DNA of 64,000 nucleotides from Escherichia coli (GCF_003018255.1 NZ_CP027440.1), one strand, 5' to 3'. Shown: positions 25,315 through 40,920, numbered from the stretch's first letter. Numbers and translations: made by a program. The notes: generated from the letters alone by a model not told the origin.

Positions 25315-26427
25315 ATGGTAAATGTTCGTCAGCCCAGGGATGTCGCACAAATTCTGCTTTCGGTGCTGTTTTTAGCCATCATGATTGTGGCATGTCTGTG
25401 GATTGTTCAACCCTTTATTCTCGGCTTTGCATGGGCCGGTACAGTGGTTATCGCCACCTGGCCGGTATTGTTACGTTTGCAAAAGATCATGTTTGGCCGC
25501 CGCTCTCTCGCCGTTCTGGTGATGACGCTGTTATTAGTGATGGTGTTTATCATCCCTATTGCCTTGTTGGTTAACAGTATTGTCGATGGCAGCGGTCCGC
25601 TAATTAAAGCCATTTCCAGCGGTGACATGACGTTACCCGATCTGGCGTGGCTTAATACCATTCCGGTGATTGGCGCGAAGCTATATGCAGGCTGGCACAA
25701 CTTGCTGGATATGGGGGGTACGGCGATCATGGCGAAAGTCCGTCCTTATATTGGCACCACCACCACCTGGTTCGTTGGGCAGGCGGCGCATATCGGGCGC
25801 TTTATGGTGCATTGTGCGCTGATGCTTCTCTTCAGTGCCCTGCTGTACTGGCGCGGTGAACAGGTGGCACAAGGCATTCGCCATTTTGCAACCCGTCTGG
25901 CAGGCGTTCGCGGTGATGCTGCTGTGCTACTGGCGGCACAGGCTATCCGCGCGGTGGCGCTGGGTGTGGTGGTGACGGCGTTAGTACAGGCAGTGCTTGG
26001 CGGTATCGGCCTCGCCGTATCCGGCGTACCTTATGCAACTTTGCTCACGGTGTTAATGATCCTCTCCTGCCTTGTCCAGCTTGGACCGTTGCCGGTACTG
26101 ATTCCGGCGATTATCTGGCTCTACTGGACCGGTGATACCACCTGGGGAACGGTATTGTTAGTGTGGAGCGGTGTGGTTGGCACGCTGGATAACGTCATCC
26201 GCCCAATGTTAATTCGCATGGGTGCCGATTTACCGCTGATCCTGATCCTCTCTGGTGTTATTGGTGGTTTGATTGCTTTCGGGATGATCGGCCTGTTTAT
26301 TGGTCCGGTTCTGTTAGCCGTTTCCTGGCGTCTTTTTGCCGCGTGGGTGGAAGAAGTCCCACCGCCGACGGACCAACCGGAAGAAATTCTCGAAGAACTT
26401 GGCGAAATCGAGAAATCGAATAAGTAA
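25315..26427 (+). CDS. ydiK: AI-2E (PerM) family membrane transporter, 370 aa
   Basis: Multi-TM hydrophobic ORF; synteny. Confidence 0.9.
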   Translation: MVNVRQPRDVAQILLSVLFLAIMIVACLWIVQPFILGFAWAGTVVIATWPVLLRLQKIMFGRRSLAVLVMTLLLVMVFIIPIALLVNSIVDGSGPLIKAISSGDMTLPDLAWLNTIPVIGAKLYAGWHNLLDMGGTAIMAKVRPYIGTTTTWFVGQAAHIGRFMVHCALMLLFSALLYWRGEQVAQGIRHFATRLAGVRGDAAVLLAAQAIRAVALGVVVTALVQAVLGGIGLAVSGVPYATLLTVLMILSCLVQLGPLPVLIPAIIWLYWTGDTTWGTVLLVWSGVVGTLDNVIRPMLIRMGADLPLILILSGVIGGLIAFGMIGLFIGPVLLAVSWRLFAAWVEEVPPPTDQPEEILEELGEIEKSNK

Positions 26428-26433
26428 TTTCTC

Positions 26434-26458
26434 ATCAGGCGGCTCTGCCGCCTGATTG
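26434..26458 (+). terminator. Weak terminator hairpin after ydiK
   Basis: Stem atcaggcggc/gccgcctgat with only a short T tract. Confidence 0.35.
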
Positions 26459-26612
26459 TTAACCCCTGCTAATTGATATTTGCTTGCTCTTCCCCATATT
26501 TTCCTGCTTACCGCCATTCAGCTGGTAGTACCTGTCGCAAATTCTTTACAGTTTTTAAACTAATGAGACGAATCTGATCGACGCAAAAAGTCCGTATGCC
26601 TACTATTAGCTC

Positions 26613-26717
26613 ACGGTTATAAATCAACATATTGATTTATAAGCATGGAAATCCCCTGAGTGAAACAACGAATTGCTGTGTGTAGTCTTTGCCCATCTCC
26701 CACGATGGGCTTTTTTT
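26613..26717 (+). ncRNA. rprA: RprA small regulatory RNA (RpoS translational activator), about 105 nt
   Basis: Sequence ACGGTTATAAATCAACATATTGATTTATAAGCATGGAAATCCCCTGAGTGAAACAACGAATTGCTGTGTGTAGTCTTTGCCCATCTCCCACGATGGGCTTTTTTTT recognised as RprA, with terminal hairpin and T-run. Confidence 0.9.
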
Positions 26718-26855
26718 TAACATTTTTCCGCTTTGCTATCTCGCCCCTCACGCTTTCCAATAATGTTGCACAAGATACTGTGACTCTCTTCAAGCCGTCA
26801 GCAGGCTGATAATGTTATTTATATTTTATTGTTTATTTCATGCAGCCATTACACG

Positions 26856-27212
26856 ATGAACGCTTATGAACTCCAGGCACTTCGCCATATTTTTGCCATG
26901 ACTATTGATGAATGCGCGACCTGGATTGCCCAGACCGATGACAGTGAAAGCTGGCGTCAGTGGGAAAATGGCAAATGCGCCATTCCTGATCGTGTAGTCG
27001 AGCAACTGTTGGCTATGCGTCAGCAACGAAAAAAACATCTTCATGCCATCATAGAGAAAATAAATAACCGCATCGGCAACAACACCATGCGTTTTTTCCC
27101 CGACTTAACCGTGTTTCAACAAGTCTACCCTGATGGCAATTTTATTGACTGGAAGATCTATCAATCGGTAGCCGCTGAATTATATGCACACGATCTGGAG
27201 CGGCTTTGTTAA
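26856..27212 (+). CDS. ydiL: Uncharacterised protein, 118 aa
   Basis: Track ORF begins at a TTG at 26829; the ATG at 26856 gives MNAYELQALRH. Confidence 0.8.
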   Translation: MNAYELQALRHIFAMTIDECATWIAQTDDSESWRQWENGKCAIPDRVVEQLLAMRQQRKKHLHAIIEKINNRIGNNTMRFFPDLTVFQQVYPDGNFIDWKIYQSVAAELYAHDLERLC

Positions 27213-27311
27213 TTTCTCCACACAAAGGAATTGTCTTTGTTACAACAATAATGAACGGATACTGACACAACATCTCTACACTTTTTAAAGCACCTTTGCT
27301 AAGTAGAACCT

Positions 27312-28526
27312 ATGAAAAATCCCTATTACCCTACCGCACTTGGGTTGTATTTTAATTACCTGGTGCATGGTATGGGCGTCATTTTGATGAGCCTGAATAT
27401 GGCCTCGCTGGAGACGCTTTGGCAGACTAATGCCGCGGGCGTCTCGATAGTTATCTCATCACTGGGCATTGGTCGATTAAGTGTCTTGCTTTTTGCAGGA
27501 TTATTATCCGATCGCTTTGGTCGCCGCCCTTTTATCATGCTCGGGATGTGCTGCTATATGGCCTTCTTTTTTGGCATCCTGCACACCAATAACATCATTA
27601 TCGCTTATGTTTTTGGCTTTCTGGCGGGAATGGCAAACAGTTTTCTCGATGCAGGCACCTATCCCAGTTTGATGGAAGCTTTTCCACGCTCACCGGGTAC
27701 AGCCAATATTTTAATTAAAGCATTTGTTTCCAGCGGACAATTTTTATTACCGCTAATTATCAGCCTGTTAGTGTGGGCTGAACTGTGGTTCGGTTGGTCC
27801 TTTATGATTGCCGCAGGCATTATGTTTATTAACGCTCTGCTTTTATACCGTTGTACGTTCCCACCCCATCCGGGTCGTCACTTACCTGTCATAAAGAAAA
27901 CCACCAGCTCTACGGAACATCGCTGTTCAATTATCGATTTAGCCAGTTATTCCCTATATGGCTATATCTCAATGGCAACGTTTTATCTGGTTAGCCAGTG
28001 GCTGGCACAATACGGACAATTTGTCGCCGGCATGTCATACACCATGTCGATCAAATTACTCAGTATCTACACCGTGGGTTCGCTGCTTTGTGTATTTATT
28101 ACCGCTCCACTCATTCGTAATACCGTTCGCCCAACAACATTACTGATGCTGTACACCTTTATCTCATTTATCGCCCTGCTCACCGTCTGCCTGCATCCCA
28201 CATTTTATGTGGTGATAATATTTGCTTTCGTCATCGGTTTTACCTCCGCAGGCGGTGTTGTACAAATTGGCCTGACGTTAATGGCGGAACGTTTTCCCTA
28301 CGCTAAAGGAAAAGCAACGGGGATCTATTACAGTGCGGGCAGCATTGCAACCTTTACTATTCCGTTGATTACGGCTCATCTTTCGCAAAGAAGTATTGCC
28401 GATATTATGTGGTTCGATACCGCCATCGCTGCCATCGGCTTTATACTGGCACTGTTTATTGGCTTACGCAGTCGCAAAGAAACGCGGCATCACTCGCTAA
28501 AGGAAAATGTCGCTCCGGGTGGGTAA
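27312..28526 (+). CDS. ydiM: MFS transporter, 404 aa
   Basis: 12-TM MFS-like hydrophobic profile with D-R/K motif (SDRFGRRP). Confidence 0.85.
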   Translation: MKNPYYPTALGLYFNYLVHGMGVILMSLNMASLETLWQTNAAGVSIVISSLGIGRLSVLLFAGLLSDRFGRRPFIMLGMCCYMAFFFGILHTNNIIIAYVFGFLAGMANSFLDAGTYPSLMEAFPRSPGTANILIKAFVSSGQFLLPLIISLLVWAELWFGWSFMIAAGIMFINALLLYRCTFPPHPGRHLPVIKKTTSSTEHRCSIIDLASYSLYGYISMATFYLVSQWLAQYGQFVAGMSYTMSIKLLSIYTVGSLLCVFITAPLIRNTVRPTTLLMLYTFISFIALLTVCLHPTFYVVIIFAFVIGFTSAGGVVQIGLTLMAERFPYAKGKATGIYYSAGSIATFTIPLITAHLSQRSIADIMWFDTAIAAIGFILALFIGLRSRKETRHHSLKENVAPGG

Positions 28527-28752
28527 TGCAATATTCTTTTCAGGTCATGCAAGATCTTACGGATAAATAACTCTTTCTGCGCTAACTAAGGAAAATCGCG
28601 ATCAAAAACAAACTATGACATGCAATATTCCTGGAAACATAAACTTTATGCCATGTACCCAGGGAAAATTATCTTCAGTATAGTAATTATGTAAACCGTC
28701 GGAGAACAATACGTACGGTAACGAAATTATCTTTCAGCAAGGAGCTGTGAAA

Positions 28753-30018
28753 ATGTCTCAAAATAAGGCTTTCAGCACGCCATTTATCCTGGCTGTTCTT
28801 TGTATTTACTTCAGCTATTTCCTGCACGGCATTAGTGTTATTACGCTTGCCCAAAACATGACATCTTTGGCAGAAAAGTTTTCCACTGACAACGCGGGCA
28901 TTGCCTATTTAATTTCCGGTATCGGATTGGGGCGATTGATCAGTATTTTATTCTTCGGAGTGATCTCCGATAAGTTTGGTCGTCGGGCGGTGATATTAAT
29001 GGCAGTAATAATGTATCTGCTATTCTTCTTTGGTATTCCTGCTTGCCCGAATTTAACTCTCGCCTACTGTCTGGCAGTGTGCGTAGGTATCGCTAACTCA
29101 GCGCTGGATACGGGTGGCTACCCCGCGCTTATGGAATGCTTTCCGAAAGCCTCTGGTTCGGCGGTCATACTGGTTAAAGCGATGGTGTCATTCGGGCAAA
29201 TGTTCTACCCAATGCTGGTGAGCTATATGTTGCTCAATAACATCTGGTACGGCTATGGGCTGATTATTCCGGGTATTCTGTTTGTACTGATCACGCTGAT
29301 GCTGTTGAAAAGCAAATTCCCCAGCCAGTTGGTGGACGCCAGCGTAGCTAATGAATTACCGCAAATGAACAGCAAACCGTTAGTCTGGCTGGAAGGTGTT
29401 TCATCAGTACTGTTCGGTGTAGCCGCATTCTCGACCTTTTATGTGATTGTGGTGTGGATGCCCAAATATGCGATGGCTTTTGCTGGTATGTCAGAAGCTG
29501 AGGCATTAAAAACCATCTCTTATTACAGTATGGGTTCGCTGGTCTGTGTCTTTATTTTTGCCGCCCTGCTGAAAAAAATGGTCCGGCCCATCTGGGCTAA
29601 TGTATTTAACTCTGCACTGGCAACAATAACAGCTGCCATTATCTACCTGTACCCTTCTCCATTGGTGTGTAATGCCGGAGCCTTTGTTATCGGTTTCTCA
29701 GCAGCTGGCGGCATTTTACAGCTCGGCGTTTCGGTCATGTCAGAGTTTTTCCCAAAAAGCAAAGCCAAAGTCACCAGTATATATATGATGATGGGTGGAC
29801 TGGCTAACTTTGTTATTCCGCTGATTACCGGTTATCTGTCGAACATCGGCCTGCAATATATCATTGTTCTCGATTTTACTTTCGCGCTGCTGGCCCTGAT
29901 TACCGCAATTATTGTTTTTATCCGCTATTACCGCGTTTTCATTATTCCTGAAAATGATGTGCGGTTTGGCGAGCATAAATTTAGCACCCGGTTAAACACG
30001 ATTAAGCATAGAGGTTAA
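28753..30018 (+). CDS. ydiN: MFS transporter paralogous to YdiM, 421 aa
   Basis: Track ORF begins at a GTG at 28747; ATG at 28753 follows an AAGGAG RBS; SDKFGRR motif. Confidence 0.85.
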
Positions 30019-30029
30019 AGGAGTTAATT

Positions 30030-30896
30030 ATGGATGTTACCGCAAAATACGAATTGATTGGGTTGATGGCCTATCCCATCCGCCACAGTTTATCGCCCGA
30101 AATGCAGAATAAAGCCTTAGAAAAAGCGGGATTGCCATTTACCTATATGGCCTTTGAAGTGGATAACGATAGTTTTCCCGGAGCAATTGAAGGATTAAAA
30201 GCCCTCAAAATGCGCGGAACTGGTGTATCAATGCCGAACAAACAACTGGCGTGTGAATATGTTGATGAATTAACGCCAGCGGCCAAACTGGTGGGAGCCA
30301 TCAACACCATCGTTAATGATGATGGCTATCTGCGTGGCTATAACACCGACGGCACGGGTCATATTCGCGCCATTAAAGAGAGCGGTTTTGATATCAAAGG
30401 CAAAACGATGGTGCTATTAGGGGCCGGTGGTGCCTCAACGGCAATTGGCGCGCAGGGGGCAATTGAAGGTTTAAAAGAAATTAAACTCTTTAACCGTCGG
30501 GATGAGTTCTTCGATAAAGCTCTCGCCTTCGCGCAGCGGGTTAACGAAAACACCGATTGCGTCGTGACAGTCACCGATCTCGCCGATCAGCAAGCCTTTG
30601 CAGAAGCCCTGGCTTCCGCCGACATTTTAACCAATGGCACCAAAGTGGGTATGAAACCCCTTGAGAATGAATCATTGGTTAATGATATCAGTCTGTTACA
30701 TCCGGGACTTCTGGTCACTGAATGCGTGTATAACCCTCATATGACGAAGTTATTGCAGCAGGCGCAACAAGCGGGTTGCAAAACGATTGATGGATACGGC
30801 ATGTTGTTGTGGCAAGGGGCTGAACAGTTCACGTTATGGACTGGCAAAGATTTCCCTCTGGAATATGTTAAACAGGTCATGGGGTTCGGTGCCTGA
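30030..30896 (+). CDS. ydiB: Quinate/shikimate 5-dehydrogenase (NAD(P)), 288 aa
   Basis: AroE-paralog sequence with GAGGA nucleotide-binding motif. Confidence 0.9.
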
Positions 30897-30926
30897 CAGG
30901 CTGACCGCGTGCAGAAAGGGTAAAAA

Positions 30927-31685
30927 ATGAAAACCGTAACTGTAAAAGATCTCGTCATTGGTACGGGCGCACCTAAAATCATCGTCTCGCTGATGGCGAA
31001 AGATATCGCCAGCGTGAAATCCGAAGCTCTCGCCTATCGTGAAGCGGACTTTGATATTCTGGAATGGCGTGTGGACCACTATGCCGATCTCTCCAATGTG
31101 GAGTCTGTCATAGCGGCAGCAAAAATTCTCCGTGAAACCATGCCAGAAAAACCGCTGCTGTTTACCTTCCGCAGTGCCAAAGAAGGCGGCGAGCAGGCGA
31201 TTTCCACCGAGGCTTATATTGCACTCAATCGTGCAGCCATCGACAGCGGCCTGGTTGATATAATCGATCTGGAGTTATTTACCGGCGATGATCAGGTTAA
31301 AGAAACCGTCGCCTACGCCCACGCGCATGATGTGAAAGTTGTCATGTCCAACCATGACTTCCATAAAACGCCGGAAGCCGAAGAAATCATTGCCCGTCTG
31401 CGCAAAATGCAGTCCTTCGATGCCGATATTCCTAAGATTGCGCTGATGCCGCAAAGTACCAGCGATGTGCTGACGTTGCTTGCTGCGACCCTGGAGATGC
31501 AGGAGCAGTATGCCGATCGTCCAATCATCACGATGTCGATGGCAAAAACTGGCGTAATTTCTCGTCTGGCTGGTGAAGTATTTGGCTCGGCGGCAACTTT
31601 TGGTGCGGTAAAAAAAGCCTCTGCGCCAGGGCAAATCTCGGTAAATGATTTGCGTACGGTATTAACTATTTTACATCAGGCATAA
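30927..31685 (+). CDS. aroD: 3-dehydroquinate dehydratase type I, 252 aa
   Basis: Sequence recognised as AroD; hairpin cggcggg...cccgccg follows the stop. Confidence 0.95.
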
Positions 31686-31830
31686 GCAATAATATTTCGG
31701 CGGGAATACTCTCCCCCGCCGAACTAAAAAAAGTATTTTTAACCGTATTTAATAAAAATATTTCGTGAGTCTCTGTGCGCTAATTCTCCATCTGGCGTAG
31801 GGAAAATCACACCTGAATCAGGAATTAACA

Positions 31831-33426
31831 ATGAAACCTGTAAAACCACCTCGCATTAATGGACGAGTGCCGGTCCTGTCGGCACAGGAAGCGGTGAATT
31901 ATATTCCCGACGAAGCAACACTTTGTGTGTTAGGCGCTGGCGGCGGTATTCTGGAAGCCACCACGTTAATTACTGCTCTTGCTGATAAATATAAACAGAC
32001 TCAAACACCACGTAATTTATCGATTATTAGTCCAACAGGGCTTGGCGATCGCGCCGACCGTGGTATTAGTCCGCTGGCGCAAGAAGGCCTGGTGAAATGG
32101 GCATTATGCGGTCACTGGGGACAATCGCCGCGTATTTCTGATCTCGCAGAACAAAATAAAATTATTGCTTATAACTATCCACAAGGTGTACTTACACAAA
32201 CCTTACGCGCCGCCGCAGCCCACCAGCCTGGTATTATTAGTGATATTGGCATCGGAACATTTGTCGATCCACGCCAGCAAGGCGGCAAACTGAATGAAGT
32301 CACTAAAGAAGACCTGATTAAACTGGTCGAGTTTGATAACAAAGAATATCTCTATTACAAAGCGATAGCGCCAGATATCGCCTTCATTCGCGCTACCACC
32401 TGCGACAGCGAAGGCTACGCCACTTTTGAAGATGAGGTGATGTATCTCGACGCATTGGTTATTGCTCAGGCGGTGCACAATAACGGCGGTATTGTGATGA
32501 TGCAGGTGCAGAAAATGGTTAAGAAAGCCACGCTGCATCCTAAATCTGTCCGTATTCCGGGTTATCTGGTGGATATTGTGGTGGTCGATCCGGATCAAAC
32601 CCAACTGTATGGCGGAGCGCCGGTTAACCGCTTTATTTCTGGTGACTTCACCCTTGATGACAGCACCAAACTTAGCCTGCCCCTAAACCAACGTAAATTA
32701 GTTGCACGGCGTGCATTATTCGAAATGCGCAAAGGCGCAGTGGGGAATGTCGGCGTCGGTATTGCTGACGGCATTGGCCTGGTCGCCCGGGAAGAAGGTT
32801 GTGCTGATGACTTTATTCTGACGGTAGAAACAGGTCCGATTGGCGGTATTACTTCACAGGGGATCGCCTTTGGCGCGAACGTGAATACCCGCGCCATTCT
32901 GGATATGACGTCCCAGTTTGATTTTTATCACGGTGGTGGTCTGGATGTTTGTTATTTGAGTTTTGCTGAAGTCGACCAGCACGGTAACGTCGGCGTGCAT
33001 AAATTCAATGGTAAAATCATGGGCACCGGTGGATTTATTGATATCAGTGCCACTTCGAAGAAAATCGTTTTCTGCGGCACATTAACTGCGGGCAGTTTAA
33101 AAACAGAAATTACCGACGGCAAATTAAATATCGTCCAGGAAGGACGGGTGAAGAAATTTATTCGGGAACTACCAGAAATTACTTTTAGCGGAAAAATCGC
33201 GCTCGAGCGAGGGCTGGATGTTCGTTATATCACTGAGCGCGCCGTATTCACGCTGAAAGAAGACGGCCTGCATTTAATCGAAATCGCTCCTGGCGTCGAT
33301 TTACAAAAAGATATTCTCGACAAAATGGATTTCACCCCAGTGATTTCGCCAGAACTCAAACTGATGGACGAAAGATTATTTATCGATGCGGCGATGGGTT
33401 TTGTCCTGCCTGAAGCGGCTCATTAA
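31831..33426 (+). CDS. ydiF: Acyl-CoA:acetate CoA-transferase with fused alpha/beta subunits, 531 aa
   Basis: Family I CoA-transferase sequence; synteny. Confidence 0.9.
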   Translation: MKPVKPPRINGRVPVLSAQEAVNYIPDEATLCVLGAGGGILEATTLITALADKYKQTQTPRNLSIISPTGLGDRADRGISPLAQEGLVKWALCGHWGQSPRISDLAEQNKIIAYNYPQGVLTQTLRAAAAHQPGIISDIGIGTFVDPRQQGGKLNEVTKEDLIKLVEFDNKEYLYYKAIAPDIAFIRATTCDSEGYATFEDEVMYLDALVIAQAVHNNGGIVMMQVQKMVKKATLHPKSVRIPGYLVDIVVVDPDQTQLYGGAPVNRFISGDFTLDDSTKLSLPLNQRKLVARRALFEMRKGAVGNVGVGIADGIGLVAREEGCADDFILTVETGPIGGITSQGIAFGANVNTRAILDMTSQFDFYHGGGLDVCYLSFAEVDQHGNVGVHKFNGKIMGTGGFIDISATSKKIVFCGTLTAGSLKTEITDGKLNIVQEGRVKKFIRELPEITFSGKIALERGLDVRYITERAVFTLKEDGLHLIEIAPGVDLQKDILDKMDFTPVISPELKLMDERLFIDAAMGFVLPEAAH

Positions 33427-33439
33427 CAGGAGTATAATG

Positions 33440-34591
33440 ATGGATTTTTCTTTAACTGAAGAACAAGAACTGCTGCTGGCCAGTATTCGCGAACTGATTA
33501 CGACTAACTTTCCGGAAGAGTATTTCCGCACCTGCGATCAAAACGGGACATACCCGCGTGAATTTATGCGGGCACTGGCGGATAACGGTATTTCCATGCT
33601 TGGCGTGCCGGAAGAATTTGGTGGTATCCCTGCGGATTACGTCACCCAAATGCTGGCGCTGATGGAAGTGTCAAAATGCGGTGCCCCGGCATTTTTGATC
33701 ACCAACGGTCAATGTATTCACAGTATGCGCCGTTTCGGTTCTGCAGAGCAGCTACGTAAAACGGCGGAAAGCACCCTGGAAACGGGTGATCCCGCCTATG
33801 CCCTGGCATTGACGGAACCAGGCGCAGGCTCAGATAACAACAGCGCCACCACCACTTACACGCGTAAAAACGGCAAGGTTTACATCAACGGCCAGAAAAC
33901 CTTTATTACCGGTGCGAAAGAGTACCCGTATATGCTGGTGCTGGCGCGCGATCCAGAACCGAAAGATCCGAAAAAGGCCTTCACCCTGTGGTGGGTCGAC
34001 TCCAGTAAGCCCGGCATTAAGATTAACCCGCTGCATAAAATCGGCTGGCATATGCTCAGCACCTGCAAAGTCTATCTCGACAACGTAGAGGTTGAAGAGA
34101 GCGACATGGTGGGCGAAGAAGGAATGGGTTTCCTCAATGTGATGTATAACTTTGAGATGGAGCGCCTGATCAACGCCGCGCGCAGCACCGGCTTTGCCGA
34201 GTGTGCCTTTGAAGATGCCGCCCGCTATGCCAACCAACGTATCGCTTTTGGTAAGCCCATTGGTCATAACCAGATGATCCAGGAAAAACTGGCGCTGATG
34301 GCGATTAAGATCGACAACATGCGCAACATGGTGTTGAAAGTGGCATGGCAAGCCGATCAGCATCAGTCACTGCGCACCAGCGCGGCGCTGGCAAAACTGT
34401 ACTGCGCACGTACCGCAATGGAAGTTATTGATGATGCGATTCAAATCATGGGCGGTCTGGGCTATACCGATGAGGCGCGCGTCTCTCGCTTCTGGCGTGA
34501 TGTCCGTTGTGAACGTATCGGCGGCGGTACAGACGAAATTATGATTTACGTAGCGGGTCGGCAGATCCTGAAAGATTATCAGAACAAATAA
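33440..34591 (+). CDS. ydiO: Acyl-CoA dehydrogenase family protein, 383 aa
   Basis: Track ORF begins at 33386; AGGAG RBS precedes the ATGATG pair at 33437/33440, giving MDFSLTEEQELL. Confidence 0.85.
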   Translation: MDFSLTEEQELLLASIRELITTNFPEEYFRTCDQNGTYPREFMRALADNGISMLGVPEEFGGIPADYVTQMLALMEVSKCGAPAFLITNGQCIHSMRRFGSAEQLRKTAESTLETGDPAYALALTEPGAGSDNNSATTTYTRKNGKVYINGQKTFITGAKEYPYMLVLARDPEPKDPKKAFTLWWVDSSKPGIKINPLHKIGWHMLSTCKVYLDNVEVEESDMVGEEGMGFLNVMYNFEMERLINAARSTGFAECAFEDAARYANQRIAFGKPIGHNQMIQEKLALMAIKIDNMRNMVLKVAWQADQHQSLRTSAALAKLYCARTAMEVIDDAIQIMGGLGYTDEARVSRFWRDVRCERIGGGTDEIMIYVAGRQILKDYQNK

Positions 34592-34596
34592 TCTGC

Positions 34597-34632
34597 AGGC
34601 GGCGCAGCTTCTTAACAAACTGCGCCGCCAGA
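34597..34632. terminator. Hairpin between convergent ydiO and ydiP
   Basis: Stem ggcggcgcag/ctgcgccgcc with a 12-nt loop; flanking T/A tracts are weak. Confidence 0.4.
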
Positions 34633-34633
34633 T

Positions 34634-35545
34634 TTATCCGGCAAGACTTATCGGTTGAGGAAATTCAGATAAGATTTCTTGTTCCGCAAAACAGTTTTTA
34701 AATTGCCTGCGGTAATCGCTGGGCGAACAGCCGACATGGCGCAAAAACAGTTTGGCAAAGTGATCGACATTTTCATAACCCACACGCCAGGAGATCTCTG
34801 CCTGTGATAATTCAGTATTAGTGAGTGACCATTTCGCTTCCGTCATACGCCGTTGAATAACATAGTTAATAGGGGAAATGCGATACTCTTTGGTAAATTC
34901 ATGGCAAATATAACTGACGCTGGCACGAAACTTTTTCGATAACTGCTCTAAAGTGATTTTTTCGCGATAATTATTATTCAGATAGAAAAGAATATCTTTT
35001 ATCAGAACATCTTTTTTAATATACCCCTGCTCCGAACGATAAGCATTTTTAAAGTTTTCATAGTAAAGAATTGCTAACGTATAGGCAAATGCGTCCCATA
35101 ACGAAGATGTTTGGCTATTTTTACTTTGCGGCAAAATCACACTTAGCTCATTAAATAAGGTTTTAATGACTTCTTTTCCCTGCCCTGCGGCAATTACCGG
35201 GCAAGAATGCGGTTGCAGTAGCTGATTTTCCTCAGCCCCCTGAAACTGAAAGCCGTACAGCGCACAGGTACACGTCGTTGCTGGATCGTTAACGTCAGAG
35301 GCCACCGCATGCAACCTGCCACGTTCTATCACCACAATGTCATCGGCATGCGCGACATATAACGAAGAATCGATGGTAAACCTTGCTACCCCTTTCTTGA
35401 CGTAAATCAACTCGGTTTCATTGTCATGAACGTGATGTCCGGACTCCCATTTTGGATCATCGCTAAATGCAAAACGTGAAAGCCGTGGCGTTTTACCGGC
35501 GACAAACAGCGTTTCGCTGGCGTTATCAAAACAGCGTTGATACAT
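34634..35545 (-). CDS. ydiP: AraC/XylS-family transcriptional regulator, 303 aa
   Basis: C-terminal AraC-type helix-turn-helix region; N-terminal cupin-like domain. Confidence 0.85.
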   Translation of the reverse strand: MYQRCFDNASETLFVAGKTPRLSRFAFSDDPKWESGHHVHDNETELIYVKKGVARFTIDSSLYVAHADDIVVIERGRLHAVASDVNDPATTCTCALYGFQFQGAEENQLLQPHSCPVIAAGQGKEVIKTLFNELSVILPQSKNSQTSSLWDAFAYTLAILYYENFKNAYRSEQGYIKKDVLIKDILFYLNNNYREKITLEQLSKKFRASVSYICHEFTKEYRISPINYVIQRRMTEAKWSLTNTELSQAEISWRVGYENVDHFAKLFLRHVGCSPSDYRRQFKNCFAEQEILSEFPQPISLAG

Positions 35546-35860
35546 GACAACCTCCCTATTCCATGAGCAAGCAAAAACAATATATGCCGGATAAAATACG
35601 GCGTGTATTGCGGTTATACAACCGTGTTTAGCGAGAGCTAAACAAGATTATTTACACTGAATGCAAGATTGTACGGTCATGGAATAACAACATTGCCGCA
35701 AATTGCACTTTTGTTTTAGCGATCGCATTTTTTTTGCAAGATTGTTGGCAAGGAAAACAGCTTGCTCCGTCGAAAACCCCGCACCGCTACCGCACACTAT
35801 TTTCAGGCCATTTTTACCTTCCATCGGAGATGGTTCCGTATGCGACTCACAGGAGAAATC

Positions 35861-36625
35861 ATGAAAATAATAACCTGCTTTAAGCTGGTGCCTGAAGAAC
35901 AGGACATTGTTGTCACTCCAGAATATACCCTGAATTTCGACAATGCCGACGCCAAAATCAGCCAGTTCGATCTCAATGCCATTGAAGCTGCAAGCCAGCT
36001 TGCAACAGATGACGATGAGATAGCCGCGCTGACCGTCGGCGGCTCTTTGTTGCAGAACTCGAAAGTGCGCAAAGACGTGCTATCCCGCGGGCCGCACAGC
36101 CTGTATATGGTGCAGGATGCACAACTTGAGCATGCACTGCCTCTCGATACCGCAAAGGCGCTGGCGACAGCAGTTGAAAAGATCGGCTTCGATTTACTGA
36201 TCTTTGGTGAAGGTTCCGGCGACCTTTATGCCCAGCAGGTTGGCTTGCTGGTCGGAGAAATTCTGCAACTTCCGGTGATTAATGCAGTGAGTGCCATTCA
36301 GCGTCAGGGCAATACACTGGTGATTGAACGCACGCTTGAAGATGATGTTGAAGTTATTGAACTCTCTGTTCCAGCCGTGCTCTGCGTCACCTCCGATATT
36401 AACGTACCACGTATTCCTTCGATGAAAGCCATCCTCGGCGCGGGTAAAAAACCGGTAAATCAGTGGCAGGCAAGTGATATTGGCTGGAGCCAGAGCGCAC
36501 CACTTGCTGAACTGACCGGCATTCGCGTACCGCCGCAAACAGAACGTAAGCACATCATTCTCGATAACGATTCGCCGGAGGCCATTGCCGAGCTGGCAGA
36601 ACATCTGAAGAAAGCCCTGAACTGA
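35861..36625 (+). CDS. ydiQ: Electron transfer flavoprotein beta-subunit-like protein, 254 aa
   Basis: Track ORF begins at 35762; the ATG at 35861 follows an AGGAG RBS and gives MKIITCFKLV. Confidence 0.85.
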   Translation: MKIITCFKLVPEEQDIVVTPEYTLNFDNADAKISQFDLNAIEAASQLATDDDEIAALTVGGSLLQNSKVRKDVLSRGPHSLYMVQDAQLEHALPLDTAKALATAVEKIGFDLLIFGEGSGDLYAQQVGLLVGEILQLPVINAVSAIQRQGNTLVIERTLEDDVEVIELSVPAVLCVTSDINVPRIPSMKAILGAGKKPVNQWQASDIGWSQSAPLAELTGIRVPPQTERKHIILDNDSPEAIAELAEHLKKALN

Positions 36626-36644
36626 AGCCTACGGAGAAGAAACG

Positions 36645-37583
36645 ATGAGTCAATTAAACAGCGTCTGGGTCTTTAGCGATAATCCTGAACGTTATGCTGA
36701 ACTGTTTGGCGGCGCTCAGCAATGGGGCCAACAGGTGTATGCCATTGTACAAAATACCGACCAGGCGCAGACAGTTATGCCTTATGGGCCAAAATGCATT
36801 TATGTTCTTGCGCAAAACGACGCGCTGCAACGTACTGAAAATTACGCCGAAAGCATTGCTGCCCTGCTGAAAGATAAACACCCTTCTATGTTGCTGCTGG
36901 CCGCGACGAAACGCGGTAAAGCTCTGGCTGCACGGTTAAGTGTGCAACTGAATGCGGCGCTGGTGAACGATGCCACTGCGGTGGATATTGTCGATGGTCA
37001 CATTTGCGCCGAACACCGGATGTATGGCGGGTTAGCGTTCGCACAGGAAAAGATCAATAGCCCGCTGGCGATCATTACCCTTGCGCCCGGTGTTCAGGAA
37101 CCGTGCACCAGTGATACCTCTAATCAGTGTCCGACAGAAACGGTACCTTATGTTGCCCCGCGTCATGAAATTCTCTGTCGCGAACGCCGTGCGAAAGCGG
37201 CAAGCAGCGTGGACCTGAGCAAAGCAAAACGTGTGGTTGGCGTCGGTCGTGGTCTGGCAGCGCAGGATGACCTGAAAATGGTCCACGAACTGGCGGCGGT
37301 GCTGAATGCTGAAGTCGGCTGTTCACGTCCAATTGCCGAAGGCGAGAACTGGATGGAGCGTGAACGTTATATCGGTGTCTCCGGCGTGTTGCTGAAATCC
37401 GATCTCTACCTGACGCTGGGGATCTCCGGGCAGATCCAGCATATGGTTGGCGGCAACGGCGCAAAAGTGATTGTCGCCATTAATAAAGATAAAAATGCGC
37501 CAATCTTCAACTATGCCGACTACGGTCTGGTGGGCGATATCTACAAAGTCGTCCCTGCCCTGATTAGCCAGTTGAGTCGCTGA
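36645..37583 (+). CDS. ydiR: Electron transfer flavoprotein alpha-subunit-like protein, 312 aa
   Basis: ETF-alpha-like sequence; synteny. Confidence 0.9.
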   Translation: MSQLNSVWVFSDNPERYAELFGGAQQWGQQVYAIVQNTDQAQTVMPYGPKCIYVLAQNDALQRTENYAESIAALLKDKHPSMLLLAATKRGKALAARLSVQLNAALVNDATAVDIVDGHICAEHRMYGGLAFAQEKINSPLAIITLAPGVQEPCTSDTSNQCPTETVPYVAPRHEILCRERRAKAASSVDLSKAKRVVGVGRGLAAQDDLKMVHELAAVLNAEVGCSRPIAEGENWMERERYIGVSGVLLKSDLYLTLGISGQIQHMVGGNGAKVIVAINKDKNAPIFNYADYGLVGDIYKVVPALISQLSR

Positions 37584-37637
37584 TTCCCTTTCAACCACAT
37601 CTCCCGCTGTAAACGCAGCGGGAAGGGAGCATAACGC

Positions 37638-38927
37638 ATGTCGGATGACAAATTTGATGCCATTGTGGTCGGTGCGGGCGTTGCCGGTAGCGTTGCCGCA
37701 CTGGTCATGGCGCGAGCCGGGCTGGATGTCCTGGTGATAGAACGCGGCGACAGTGCCGGATGTAAAAACATGACCGGCGGGCGTCTTTATGCCCACACAC
37801 TTGACGCAATTATTCCAGGCTTTGCAGCATCAGCGCCGGTAGAACGCAAGGTCACACGCGAGAAAATCTCCTTCTTAACCGAAGAAAGCGCCGTTACCCT
37901 CGATTTTCACCGCGAGCAACCAGATGTTCCGCAACACGCGTCTTATACCGTATTGCGTAATCGTCTGGACCCGTGGTTGATGGAACAAGCCGAGCAGGCG
38001 GGCGCGCAGTTTATCCCGGGCGTACGCGTCGATGCACTGGTTCGTGAAGGAAACAAGGTCACTGGCGTCCAGGCCGGGGATGATATTCTCGAAGCGAATG
38101 TGGTGATTCTGGCTGATGGCGTTAACTCGATGCTTGGCCGCTCGCTGGGAATGGTTTCCGCTTCCGATCCGCATCATTACGCTGTTGGTGTTAAAGAGGT
38201 TATAGGCCTGACACCAGAACAGATCAACGATCGCTTTAATGTTACGGGCGAGGAAGGTGCCGCCTGGCTGTTTGCCGGTTCCCCTTCTGACGGCCTGATG
38301 GGCGGCGGATTCCTCTATACCAACAAAGATTCCGTATCGTTGGGGCTGGTTTGTGGATTGGGTGATATCGCCCATGCGCAAAAAAGTGTGCCGCAAATGC
38401 TGGAAGATTTTAAACAACACCCCGCCATTCGCCCGCTGATTAGCGGCGGCAAACTGCTTGAATACTCCGCGCATATGGTGCCGGAGGGCGGTCTGGCAAT
38501 GGTGCCGCAGCTGGTTAACGATGGCGTGATGATCGTTGGTGACGCCGCAGGCTTCTGCCTGAATTTGGGTTTTACGGTCCGCGGCATGGATTTAGCCATT
38601 GCATCGGCTCAGGCTGCCGCCACAACAGTGATCGCCGCCAAAGAACGCGCGGATTTCTCCGCCAGCAGTCTTGCGCAATACAAACGTGAGCTGGAACAAA
38701 GCTGCGTCATGCGTGATATGCAGCATTTTCGCAAGATCCCGGCGCTGATGGAAAACCCGCGCCTGTTTAGCCAATACCCACGAATGGTCGCCGACATCAT
38801 GAACGAGATGTTCACCATCGACGGCAAACCTAACCAACCGGTACGCAAAATGATCATGGGACACGCGAAGAAAATTGGACTGATCAACTTGCTGAAAGAT
38901 GGCATTAAGGGAGCAACCGCGCTATGA
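37638..38927 (+). CDS. ydiS: FAD-dependent oxidoreductase (FixC / ETF-quinone oxidoreductase-like), 429 aa
   Basis: N-terminal FAD motif DAIVVGAGVAGS. Confidence 0.9.
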   Translation: MSDDKFDAIVVGAGVAGSVAALVMARAGLDVLVIERGDSAGCKNMTGGRLYAHTLDAIIPGFAASAPVERKVTREKISFLTEESAVTLDFHREQPDVPQHASYTVLRNRLDPWLMEQAEQAGAQFIPGVRVDALVREGNKVTGVQAGDDILEANVVILADGVNSMLGRSLGMVSASDPHHYAVGVKEVIGLTPEQINDRFNVTGEEGAAWLFAGSPSDGLMGGGFLYTNKDSVSLGLVCGLGDIAHAQKSVPQMLEDFKQHPAIRPLISGGKLLEYSAHMVPEGGLAMVPQLVNDGVMIVGDAAGFCLNLGFTVRGMDLAIASAQAAATTVIAAKERADFSASSLAQYKRELEQSCVMRDMQHFRKIPALMENPRLFSQYPRMVADIMNEMFTIDGKPNQPVRKMIMGHAKKIGLINLLKDGIKGATAL

Positions 38928-39217
38928 GCCAGAACGCTACGGTTAACGTCGACATCAAATTAGGCGTAAATAAATTCCATGTTGATGAGGGCCACCCGCA
39001 TATCATTCTGGCGGCAAATCCCGATATCAATGAATTCCGTAAATTAATGAAAGCCTGCCCTGCCGGACTTTATAAGCAGGATGACGCAGGAAACATTCAT
39101 TTCGATTCCGCCGGTTGTCTGGAGTGCGGCACCTGTCGGGTGCTGTGCGGCAACACTATTCTCGAACAGTGGCAATATCCCGCAGGCACCTTCGGTATTG
39201 AATTTCGCTACGGCTAA
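38924..39217 (+). CDS. ydiT: FixX-type ferredoxin-like protein, 97 aa
   Basis: CxxCxxC cysteine motif; start overlaps ydiS stop (ATGA). Confidence 0.85.
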   Translation: MSQNATVNVDIKLGVNKFHVDEGHPHIILAANPDINEFRKLMKACPAGLYKQDDAGNIHFDSAGCLECGTCRVLCGNTILEQWQYPAGTFGIEFRYG

Positions 39218-39219
39218 TC

Positions 39220-40920
39220 ATGCATCCCACAGGCCCGCATCTCGGGCCTGATGTTCTGTTTCGAGAGTCCAAAATGAAAGTGACATTAACGTTCAACGAA
39301 CAACGTCGTGCGGCGTATCGTCAGCAAGGGTTATGGGGCGATGCTTCACTGGCCGATTACTGGCAGCAGACCGCTCGTGCGATGCCAGACAAAATTGCCG
39401 TGGTCGACAATCATGGTGCAACGTACACTTATAGCGCGCTCGATCACGCCGCGAGCTGTCTGGCAAACTGGATGTTAGCGAAGGGTATTGAATCAGGCGA
39501 TCGCATCGCATTTCAACTGCCAGGCTGGTGTGAATTTACCGTTATCTATCTTGCCTGCCTGAAAACCGGTGCGGTTTCCGTGCCGCTGTTGCCTTCCTGG
39601 CGAGAAGCAGAACTGGTGTGGGTGCTCAATAAGTGTCAGGCAAAAATGTTCTTTGCACCGACGTTGTTTAAACAAACGCGTCCGGTAGATTTAATCCTGC
39701 CGCTGCAAAATCAGCTTCCACAACTACAACAAATTGTCGGCGTGGACAAACTGGCTCCCGCCACCTCTGCTCTCTCATTAAGTCAGATTATCGCCGACAA
39801 TACTCCTCTGACCACGGCGATAACGGTCCACGGCGATGAATTAGCCGCGGTGCTGTTTACCTCCGGAACCGAGGGTCTGCCAAAGGGCGTGATGCTAACG
39901 CATAACAATATTCTCGCCAGTGAGCGGGCTTATTGCGCGCGGCTAAATCTGACCTGGCAGGATGTCTTTATGATGCCTGCGCCACTTGGTCACGCAACGG
40001 GCTTTCTGCATGGCGTAACAGCACCTTTTTTGATTGGTGCTCGCAGCGTGTTGTTAGATATTTTCACTCCTGCTGCGTGTCTCGCGCTGCTTGAGCAGCA
40101 GCGTTGCACCTGTATGCTCGGCGCAACGCCGTTTGTCTATGATCTTTTGAATTTACTGGAGAAACAGCCCGCAGACCTTTCAGCGCTGCGTTTCTTTCTT
40201 TGCGGCGGTACCACAATCCCCAAAAAAGTGGCGCGTGAATGCCAGCAGCGCGGCATTAAATTATTAAGTGTTTATGGTTCCACAGAAAGTTCGCCGCATG
40301 CGGTGGTGAATCTCGATGATCCTTTGTCGCGCTTTATACACACCGATGGTTACGCTGCCGCAGGTGTAGAGATTAAAGTGGTCGATGACGCACGCAAGAC
40401 TTTACCGCCAGGTTGCGAAGGTGAAGAAGCCTCGCGTGGCCCCAATGTGTTTATGGGGTATTTTGATGAACCTGAATTAACCGCCCGTGCGCTGGATGAA
40501 GAAGGCTGGTATTACAGCGGCGATCTCTGCCGCATGGATGAGGCTGGCTATATAAAAATAACCGGGCGCAAGAAAGATATTATTGTCCGCGGCGGCGAAA
40601 ATATTAGCAGCCGTGAAGTAGAAGATATTTTATTGCAGCATCCTAAAATTCACGATGCTTGTGTGGTTGCAATGCCCGATGAACGCTTAGGTGAACGTTC
40701 ATGCGCTTATGTCGTGCTGAAAGCACCGCATCATTCATTATCGCTGGAAGATGTAGTGGCATTTTTTAGCCGTAAACGGGTCGCGAAATATAAATATCCT
40801 GAACATATCGTGGTAATCGAAAAACTACCGCGCACAGCCTCAGGTAAAATACAAAAGTTTTTGTTAAGGAAAGATATTATGCGGCGATTAACTCAGGATG
40901 TCTGTGAAGAGATTGAATAA
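39220..40920 (+). CDS. fadK: Short/medium-chain acyl-CoA synthetase, 566 aa (alternative start at 39274 would give 548 aa)
   Basis: AMP-binding motif FTSGTEGLPKG; ATG at 39220 lies 2 nt after the ydiT stop. Confidence 0.85.
   Translation: MHPTGPHLGPDVLFRESKMKVTLTFNEQRRAAYRQQGLWGDASLADYWQQTARAMPDKIAVVDNHGATYTYSALDHAASCLANWMLAKGIESGDRIAFQLPGWCEFTVIYLACLKTGAVSVPLLPSWREAELVWVLNKCQAKMFFAPTLFKQTRPVDLILPLQNQLPQLQQIVGVDKLAPATSALSLSQIIADNTPLTTAITVHGDELAAVLFTSGTEGLPKGVMLTHNNILASERAYCARLNLTWQDVFMMPAPLGHATGFLHGVTAPFLIGARSVLLDIFTPAACLALLEQQRCTCMLGATPFVYDLLNLLEKQPADLSALRFFLCGGTTIPKKVARECQQRGIKLLSVYGSTESSPHAVVNLDDPLSRFIHTDGYAAAGVEIKVVDDARKTLPPGCEGEEASRGPNVFMGYFDEPELTARALDEEGWYYSGDLCRMDEAGYIKITGRKKDIIVRGGENISSREVEDILLQHPKIHDACVVAMPDERLGERSCAYVVLKAPHHSLSLEDVVAFFSRKRVAKYKYPEHIVVIEKLPRTASGKIQKFLLRKDIMRRLTQDVCEEIE

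Follow-up and report, generated by a model that had tools for sequence, protein, structure and literature searches.

The stretch of Escherichia coli DNA analysed here (64,000 nt, referred to at its full length as the window) carries on its plus strand, at positions 26856–31685, the five genes ydiL, ydiM, ydiN, ydiB, and aroD, which are considered below as a candidate system for the uptake and salvage of quinate, shikimate, and related hydroaromatic acids. The segment is a core locus of E. coli that has long been known. Bases 26400–31900 are 99.9% identical to the chromosome of E. coli strain JNE23-011, at least 80% of this stretch was found in 5,315 of 5,426 complete E. coli genomes, and the RefSeq annotation of the 99.9%-identical chromosome lists the same five genes under the same names. 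A first interpretation made from the DNA alone (the sequence-only reading) had placed the five genes at these positions, and all five open reading frames lie exactly there.

The first gene, ydiL (26856–27212, +), encodes a protein of 118 aa that was previously set down as small and unknown. It matches PF08965 (Aca2_YdiL) over its full length (positions 1–118 of 118; 201.7 bits against a cut-off of 23.8), has a solved structure (PDB 1S4K, matched at E = 7.6e-47), and adopts the fold of Aca2, whose structures were matched at E of about 1e-14. The next two genes, ydiM (27312–28526, +; 404 aa) and ydiN (28753–30018, +; 421 aa, with an alternative GTG start at 28747), encode transporters of the major facilitator superfamily (MFS), with MFS_1 scores of 113.2 and 114.9 bits, respectively (cut-off 33.4). 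Only 11 bp 3′ of ydiN, ydiB (30030–30896, +; 288 aa) encodes a quinate/shikimate dehydrogenase dependent on nicotinamide adenine dinucleotide or its phosphate, NAD(P), which contains the Pfam domains Shikimate_dh_N and SDH_C and matches the NCBIfam equivalog NF009390 along its full length (residues 1–288 of 288; 669.9 bits against 349). The last gene, aroD (30927–31685, +; 252 aa), lies 30 bp 3′ of ydiB and encodes a type I 3-dehydroquinate dehydratase (TIGR01093, 290.8 bits against 139.3; also a PF01487 DHquinase_I match). Just upstream of ydiL is the small RNA gene rprA (26613–26720). The G+C content is 0.40–0.47 across rprA-ydiL-ydiM-ydiN (window 26250–30250) and 0.52–0.58 in the ydiJ/ydiK flanks, and the low G+C of the ydiL–ydiN stretch is compatible with a low-G+C foreign donor, as weak evidence.

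YdiM and YdiN had also been described as paralogous permeases sharing an SD[RK]FGRR motif. The paralogy was confirmed by 37% identity over 385 aa (E = 7e-87), and the motif is present in both proteins, as LSDRFGRRPF in YdiM (encoded at 27510–27527) and SDKFGRR in YdiN (28969–28986). Sequences of the SDRFGRR type are the general "motif A" of MFS loop 2–3 (G-x-x-x-D-R/K-x-G-R-R/K). Within the window, D[RK]xGR[RK] is carried by YdiM and YdiN only, and an unrelated MFS protein encoded in the locus of an Enterobacterales metagenome-assembled genome (L038) has the variant SDHFGRKK. Since it is generic to the superfamily, motif A says nothing on substrate or paralogy and was dropped as evidence of specificity. 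The YdiM/N subfamily itself is narrow: of 1.84 billion representative clusters, 679 matched at E ≤ 1e-3.

The surroundings of ydiL were compared by scanning one genome per species with a YdiL alignment, which yielded 41 loci. In 36 of these species representatives, ydiL is followed by ydiM, ydiN, ydiB, and aroD and then by ydiF, and ydiM stands downstream of ydiL in 39, whereas ydiJ-ydiK lies upstream in only 20. As the block is constant while its upstream flank changes, ydiL is the conserved left edge of the block. Two further genes occur within it in some lineages. A gene for an AroL-type shikimate kinase (NF002988, 224 bits against a cut-off of 161) begins about 10–16 bp 3′ of ydiL in seven loci, from Serratia, Symbiopectobacterium, Prodigiosinella, Brenneria, Mangrovibacter, and a record labelled Martelella. 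A LysR gene lies inside the cluster in 13 loci; it is divergent and located between ydiM and ydiN in Serratia, Yersinia, Dickeya, Prodigiosinella, and Brenneria (L017, L022, L035, L039, and L041), and it is also found in Mangrovibacter (L036 16357–17259). The best PDB match of the cluster LysR is the effector domain of Listeria QuiR, from a crystal structure with shikimate (5TED, E = 3e-64); the second-best LysR-type regulator reached only 6.5e-26. In Listeria, QuiR is reported to be the activator of the qui operons, whose products include enzymes of the YdiB and AroD types (10.1101/2025.04.08.647683).

Both the kinase and the QuiR-like LysR genes are missing from the Escherichia, Citrobacter, and Kosakonia loci. 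No LysR or kinase remnant was detected by tblastn and blastn in the E. coli, Yersinia, and Dickeya spacers, and no remnant of a QuiR-like LysR was found in the window at E ≤ 1e-3. Nor was there any blastn match to a QuiR-like gene elsewhere in the 5,426 E. coli genomes, at a DNA-level sensitivity that leaves room for a remote homologue. We therefore view the E. coli locus as a QuiR-type hydroaromatic cluster in stripped-down form, the kinase and LysR genes having been lost in Escherichia, Citrobacter, and Kosakonia. Beyond the ydiL loci, distant YdiM/N homologues adjoin shikimate dehydrogenase, dehydroquinase, or kinase genes in L046, L047, L048, L049, L052, and L056, and in L057 a transporter–chorismate mutase fusion is encoded within a biosynthetic aro operon; L048, L053, L054, and L055 are metagenomic contigs too short to show context. 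The shikimate context of YdiM/N homologues thus recurred, in independent look-ups, in both Firmicutes and Proteobacteria. The distant clusters L046, L047, L049, and L052 have no ydiL.

Conserved elements were found upstream of both ydiL and ydiN. The putative ydiL promoter was recognised as a phylogenetic footprint and combines a CRP/FNR-family-like site, TGTGACTCTCTTCAAG (26779..26794, +), with an extended −10 element, TGtTATTTA (26813..26821, +), for a predicted transcription start near 26828. The composite TGTGA-N6-TCA-N20-TGnTATTTA occurs once in the window (26779–26821) and never in 100 shuffles, and 36 of 42 ydiL loci, spanning more than 10 genera, have a single copy of it, in every case shortly before ydiL. 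The putative site agrees with the consensus at 8 of 10 positions and keeps a fixed spacing of 29 nt to the extended −10 element in 36 of the 42 loci. With TATTTA taken as the −10 hexamer, the centre of the site would fall at −41.5, as in class II promoters activated by CRP or FNR, and the ydiL promoter is predicted to be of this CRP/FNR-like class, with the identity of the bound factor presumed from the site. In earlier work, the ydiL promoter was one of the two E. coli promoters that most consistently showed no activity in culture and became active in the mouse gut (PMC6561318). In a genomic SELEX (systematic evolution of ligands by exponential enrichment) study, the spacer between rprA and ydiL was listed with an RpoD promoter, CTGATA-15-TATTGT, classed as "constitutive" (window 26806–26832; PMC3946193), which fits poorly with a promoter silent in culture. 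A consensus promoter scan returned fewer promoter-like sites than expected by chance and none that was convincing for ydiM, ydiN, or aroD.

The 99-bp spacer between ydiL and ydiM (27213..27311, +) contains no terminator-like structure (RNA fold z-score +0.49, no terminator call) and is shortened to about 50–60 bp in Kosakonia and the Citrobacter youngae group, which suggests that ydiL and ydiM are co-transcribed. The 226-bp ydiM-ydiN spacer is also unstructured (fold z-score +0.34), and an intrinsic terminator was rejected there. Its left end, abutting the ydiM stop codon, is formed by a direct-repeat pair in a 21-nt register, TGCAATAT-N13-TGCAAGAT (28527..28555, +). This TGCAAnAT pair is unique in the window and absent from 100 shuffles, and it recurs with identical spacing in Escherichia, Citrobacter, Intestinirhabdus, Serratia, Yersinia, Dickeya, Prodigiosinella, and Brenneria, and 22 nt apart in Kosakonia. 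Further downstream, a block at 28618..28687 (+), conserved in an alignment of 12 genera, contains a third TGCAATAT copy (28621–28628) and a conserved GTATAnTAAT (28678–28687). The repeats and the block are kept in lineages both with and without the QuiR-like LysR gene. By eye, the block was compared with a sigma-54 promoter, a TyrR box, a CRP site, and a T-N11-A LysR box, each of which misfits in spacing or conservation. At the other end of the locus, a G+C-rich hairpin (31696..31723, +; −17.6 kcal/mol, z-score −3.08) begins 10 nt after the aroD stop codon and is trailed by an A-run, with no canonical U-tract. It is probably the 3′ end of the ydiN-ydiB-aroD transcript, with a presumed terminator function, and may serve as a transcript end or a stabiliser. 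Given the gaps of 11 and 30 bp between ydiN, ydiB, and aroD and the hairpin that follows, we infer two regulated units, ydiL-ydiM and ydiN-ydiB-aroD, so that the five genes are probably divided among two or more transcription units. As no expression comes from the ydiL promoter in vitro, aroD must have constitutive expression of its own for biosynthesis.

YdiL is clearly part of the locus and has the fold of the repressor Aca2, in which alanine mutants of R30, Y34, and R39 abolish DNA binding (PMC8633003). These base-contacting residues align to E31, Q35, and K40 of YdiL, and among 18 orthologues the equivalent positions are variable and often acidic (position 31, E11/A2/K2/Q1/S1/D1; position 35, Q8/R3/M3/E1/A1/S1; position 40, E14/K2/R1/D1). 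The mean entropy over the same orthologues is 1.49 bits in the recognition helix, 0.43 bits in residues 63–82, and 0.34 bits in residues 99–118, and INNRIGNNTMR, the C-terminal stretch within residues 63–82, is invariant, indicating that the conserved surface is not the recognition helix. No Aca2-type operator (TTCG-N6-CGAA, searched at the N6 spacing with at most one mismatch) was found at 26421–37170, and the total for the window was below chance; a search for inverted repeats as a YdiL operator upstream of ydiL, ydiM, and ydiN returned one weak intragenic palindrome only. With the contact residues lost and no such operator near the cluster, an Aca2-like autorepressor role is unsupported at the residue level. 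The setting is likewise not that of an aca gene, as ydiL belongs to the chromosomal core, with rprA upstream and ydiM downstream.

With slightly better than even confidence, we regard the locus as a reduced version of a widespread QuiR-type cluster for the uptake and interconversion of quinate, shikimate, or dehydroshikimate. YdiM and YdiN would be paralogous proton-coupled MFS carriers of hydroaromatic acids, and the putative assignment of shikimate-type acids as their substrates draws on gene context and indirect phenotypes. YdiB would convert quinate to 3-dehydroquinate and interconvert shikimate and 3-dehydroshikimate with NAD(P), which are established reactions of this enzyme. AroD, whose established reaction and housekeeping role as the biosynthetic dehydroquinase are well known, would turn dehydroquinate into dehydroshikimate. 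External hydroaromatics would in this way enter the common aromatic pathway as salvage, without degradation. The ydiL-ydiM pair would be read from the conserved CRP/FNR-like, extended −10 promoter, silent in culture and on in the gut, ydiN-ydiB-aroD from the second conserved regulatory region in the ydiM-ydiN spacer, and aroD would have additional constitutive expression for biosynthesis.

The grouping of these ydi genes with shikimate genes is not new, having been published in 2006, 2009, and 2023. Johansson and Liden (2006), as summarised in PMC4585142, found that carbon limitation co-induces ydiB, aroD, and ydiN in a shikimate producer and proposed YdiN as a transporter of shikimate or by-products. 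Hu et al. (2009) grouped YdiN, YdiL, and YdiM with Aro genes in a predicted module and described shikimate-related phenotypes of ydiN and ydiB deletions, that of ΔydiN being a shikimate-related auxotrophy (PMC2672614). Khalfaoui-Hassani et al. (2023) reported that about 75% of YdiM/N homologues adjoin a shikimate-pathway gene, most often ydiB, then aroD, then aroK (PMC10588857). Deletion of ydiN raised the shikimate titre 1.3-fold, much like deletion of shiA (PMC8788726), which is consistent with re-uptake of shikimate.

The sequence-only reading had proposed an import-and-catabolism or salvage unit. Its grouping of transporters with enzymes, and the salvage option, are upheld by the conservation of the block, the distant contexts, and the literature, and its catabolic option is not, since the annotation of the region that corresponds to the window lists no gene for a dehydroshikimate dehydratase, for ring cleavage, or for protocatechuate metabolism. 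The absence of an annotated dehydroshikimate dehydratase leaves catabolism unsupported, and salvage or another non-degradative use fits better. Every cluster neighbour is assigned another function, and the locus did not qualify as a catabolic cluster of the qui/qut/qsu kind. Salvage, the best-supported reading, fits the kinase and the shikimate-sensing regulator of the relatives, the L057 fusion, the effect of the ydiN deletion on titre, and the mutant phenotypes of 2009.

A number of points weigh against uptake and salvage as the role of the locus. ShiA already provides E. coli with shikimate uptake, ydiM is reportedly listed as an isoprenol-tolerance gene, and transport by YdiM and YdiN is still only putative, in agreement with the earlier remark on their substrates. 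YdiM and YdiN reached no cut-off among the curated NCBIfam transporter subfamilies, and they scored only 40.6 and 42.3 bits with the aromatic acid:H+ symporter model TIGR00895, whose cut-off is 418.55; TCDB nevertheless places them in 2.A.1.15, as 2.A.1.15.12 and 2.A.1.15.13 (PMC10588857). The deletion of ydiM slows 64Cu uptake and lowers bo3 oxidase activity (PMC10588857), a phenotype that a shikimate role does not explain. Many relatives pair the cluster genes with a reductase of carbon–carbon double bonds (C=C reductase), which points beyond simple salvage. To these are added three points given above, namely the lack of the kinase and of a QuiR-like regulator in E. coli, the loss of the DNA-reading residues from YdiL, and an operon structure of two units deduced from sequence features.

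The pairing with reductases is the basis of a wider interpretation, which we consider possible and on balance rather unlikely, in which the genes from ydiL to fadK, about 14 kb in all, would encode one anaerobic pathway, induced in the gut, that uses a hydroaromatic acid as an electron sink and not as a source of aromatic amino acids. Quinate or shikimate derived from plants or the microbiota would be imported and equilibrated by YdiB and AroD, YdiF or FadK would form the coenzyme A (CoA) ester, and YdiO would reduce the ring C=C bond with electrons from YdiQRST. The candidate members occupy 31831..40920 and comprise ydiF (31831–33426), ydiO (33440–34591), ydiP (34634–35545, −), ydiQ (35861–36625), ydiR (36645–37583), ydiS (37638–38927), ydiT (38924–39217), and fadK (39274–40920), all taken from the annotation with their translations checked. 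Gene order is in keeping with such a pathway. ydiF stands directly 3′ of aroD in all 36 loci with ydiN-ydiB-aroD, and in L038 (10432–20098) ydiL is followed by an inverted array of fadK, an extra MFS gene, ydiT/S/R/Q, ydiP, and ydiO, the inversion ending at the ydiL|ydiM junction and after fadK, so that ydiM to fadK moves as one block. Adjacency conserved among Gammaproteobacteria may, however, simply be inherited, and in E. coli aroD and ydiF are 146 bp apart, with a hairpin in between.

In the more distant L046 and L047, the gene order is shuffled, and ydiB, aroD, and a ydiN-like gene alternate with genes for acyl-CoA dehydrogenase, electron transfer flavoprotein (ETF), ETF–quinone oxidoreductase (ETF-QO), acyl-CoA ligase, and CoA-transferase, and their products share 82% (YdiF), 67% (YdiO), and 74–77% (YdiB) identity with those of E. 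coli. A C=C reductase lies beside shikimate dehydrogenase, dehydroquinase, kinase, or LysR genes in five of the seven informative distant contexts of YdiM/N. Two further, unrelated classes of C=C reductase take the equivalent position, namely enoate reductases of the FadH/old yellow enzyme (OYE) type, in the Neobacillus cucumis and L056 clusters, and an ApbE-dependent flavin reductase (FMN_bind/FAD_binding_2), in the cluster of Levilactobacillus acidifarinae. In Mangrovibacter, a FadH/OYE enzyme is encoded inside a ydiL-kinase-reductase-ydiB-ydiM-aroD array and shares 59% identity with the copy that stands before a shikimate dehydrogenase gene in Neobacillus; this identity suggests a dedicated, horizontally transferred FadH/OYE family. 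Within clusters of shikimate dehydrogenase, kinase, and MFS genes, FadH/OYE/BaiCD-like Fe-S flavoenzymes were located at L036 11313–13340, L052 14860–16911 and 4482–6431, and L056 8939–10930. The shikimate kinase is also present in several of the reductase-bearing clusters, pointing back to salvage.

As to function, Whiting and Coggins are said to have found in the 1970s that lactobacilli use quinate and shikimate as hydrogen acceptors, which we count for the reductive pathway. Beyond its own family, the best named-function NCBIfam match of YdiO is crotonobetainyl-CoA dehydrogenase of the CaiA type (450 bits, under the cut-off of 540). It is reported that gut bacteria reduce the shikimate enoate as a respiratory acceptor and that shikimate is present in faeces (10.1101/2022.12.26.521950), and the ydiL promoter is activated in the gut (PMC6561318). 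On the other side, ydiFO, ydiQRST, and fadK are currently assigned to anaerobic fatty-acid beta-oxidation (PMC3967523), and the RefSeq name of FadK refers to medium-chain fatty acids. Our literature search found no account of E. coli reducing shikimate or quinate and no paper linking the ydiL-aroD half with the ydiF-fadK half. If the reductive pathway did exist, the ydiF-fadK genes would be reassigned from anaerobic fatty-acid oxidation, the quinate dehydrogenase retained by E. coli would be explained, and dietary hydroaromatic acids would join the electron sinks of gut Enterobacteriaceae.

Less probable still, and in our view quite unlikely, is that YdiM, and perhaps YdiN, is a metal-related carrier that imports copper or a copper-binding aromatic ligand for active bo3 quinol oxidase, the shikimate neighbours being indirect or historical. 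The ΔydiM strain grows poorly when respiration relies on the bo3 oxidase, in addition to its low oxidase activity and slower 64Cu uptake, and YdiM contains Met-rich transmembrane motifs (PMC10588857). The same paper calls the copper link unclear and gives the figure of about 75–86% of homologues adjoining shikimate genes, a context reproduced independently here in Firmicutes and Proteobacteria, while in seven Enterobacterales loci ydiM comes after the shikimate kinase gene that starts about 10–16 bp past ydiL; the ΔydiM phenotype could also be secondary. It appears very unlikely that YdiN and YdiM are exporters that dispose of surplus hydroaromatic intermediates or of solvents, with quinate, dehydroshikimate, gallate, and isoprenol as examples. 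Export of aromatic by-products by YdiN was one option of Johansson and Liden as summarised in PMC4585142, and TCDB lists ydiM as a putative isoprenol exporter (PMC10588857). Against this, the ydiN deletion raises extracellular shikimate, as does the deletion of the importer gene shiA (PMC8788726), and the neighbouring kinase, shikimate-sensing QuiR-like activator, and substrate-consuming enzymes are a typical pairing for an uptake system. Finally, the highly improbable case of no functional module, with ydiL a domesticated phage-type regulator acting elsewhere (the Aca2 structure paper viewed it as "stand-alone" and possibly acting at distant sites; PMC8434428), the MFS genes unrelated drug or solute pumps, and aroD and ydiB chance neighbours, draws on the housekeeping role of aroD and the lack of YdiL from L046, L047, L049, and L052 and is largely refuted by the comparative data, namely the conservation of the block across more than 10 genera despite a varying left flank, the AroL-like kinase gene about 10–16 bp past ydiL in seven loci, and the renewed association of MFS, dehydrogenase, and dehydroquinase genes in Firmicutes, together with the published co-expression and mutant phenotypes.

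Outside the cluster, the annotation of the 99.9%-identical record includes a frameshifted pseudogene of a ShET2/EspL2-family type III effector between thrS and yniD (L045 7984–9014, corresponding approximately to window 59338–60368).

The uptake-and-salvage interpretation in its original form restates a published hypothesis on well-annotated genes of E. coli K-12 and adds little alone. The present analysis adds ydiL as the left edge of the block, a putative CRP/FNR-like promoter, the loss of the kinase and LysR genes, the repeats upstream of ydiN, and the recurring C=C reductases, which suggest that ydiF-fadK may belong to the system. The locus touches on the substrates of YdiM and YdiN, the reason for YdiB in an organism unable to degrade quinate, the presence of an Aca2-fold protein in a core metabolic locus, and the true function of the ydiF-fadK genes. 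Three comparative points, the stripped-down QuiR-type cluster, the gut-activated promoter, and the C=C reductases recurring in relatives, enable cheap and direct experiments. The interest of the locus is raised slightly by the testable link to reductases, the odd residues of YdiL, and the conserved repeats whose presumed regulator is lost.

Among known systems, Listeria monocytogenes QuiR/qui1-qui2 combines a shikimate-activated LysR with a YdiB-type quinate dehydrogenase, an AroD-type dehydroquinase, a shikimate dehydrogenase, and a dehydroshikimate dehydratase. The E. coli locus shares with it a YdiB-type dehydrogenase and a type I, AroD-type dehydroquinase for external quinate or shikimate, and the versions of the cluster in Yersinia, Serratia, Dickeya, and Brenneria have a LysR closest to QuiR. 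E. coli has two YdiM/N-type MFS genes and ydiL, and, unlike the Listeria system, it has neither a QuiR-like gene nor a dehydroshikimate dehydratase, without which it cannot make protocatechuate. Acinetobacter qui-pca, Corynebacterium qsu, and fungal qut join the genes of a permease to those of a quinate/shikimate dehydrogenase and a dehydroquinase for external hydroaromatics, and the E. coli locus has the same combination. Those systems include a dehydroshikimate dehydratase and feed the protocatechuate/beta-ketoadipate pathway, and the proteobacterial and fungal cases use another type of dehydrogenase and a type II dehydroquinase. In contrast, none of those genes is annotated in the E. coli region.

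The E. coli shikimate/dehydroshikimate:H+ symporter ShiA is, like YdiM and YdiN, an MFS protein, and it belongs to another family of that superfamily. Its gene is encoded elsewhere and is unlinked to ydiB and aroD, and transport by YdiM and YdiN, unlike that by ShiA, is only putative, while deletion of shiA or ydiN has a similar effect on the shikimate titre (PMC8788726). Compared with Aca2, the anti-CRISPR-associated helix–turn–helix autorepressor of phage ZF40, YdiL is the product of a chromosomal core gene without an acr partner. Unlike in the gut shikimate reducers and the Cai/Fix system, enoate reduction by the products of the E. coli neighbours ydiF-fadK is only putative, and these genes are currently assigned to anaerobic fatty-acid oxidation. 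The clusters of the relatives include a C=C reductase of the flavin, OYE, or acyl-CoA type, as in the flavin reductases of Eggerthella lenta and Sutterella wadsworthensis, and E. coli YdiO-YdiQRST-YdiF-FadK has the parts list of Cai/Fix, resembling CaiABCD-FixABCX and caffeate respiration. The reductive pathway, if it is true, would parallel, in a CoA-dependent form, the "shikimate respiration" that Eggerthella and Sutterella carry out with flavin reductases and the quinate and shikimate reduction of lactobacilli.

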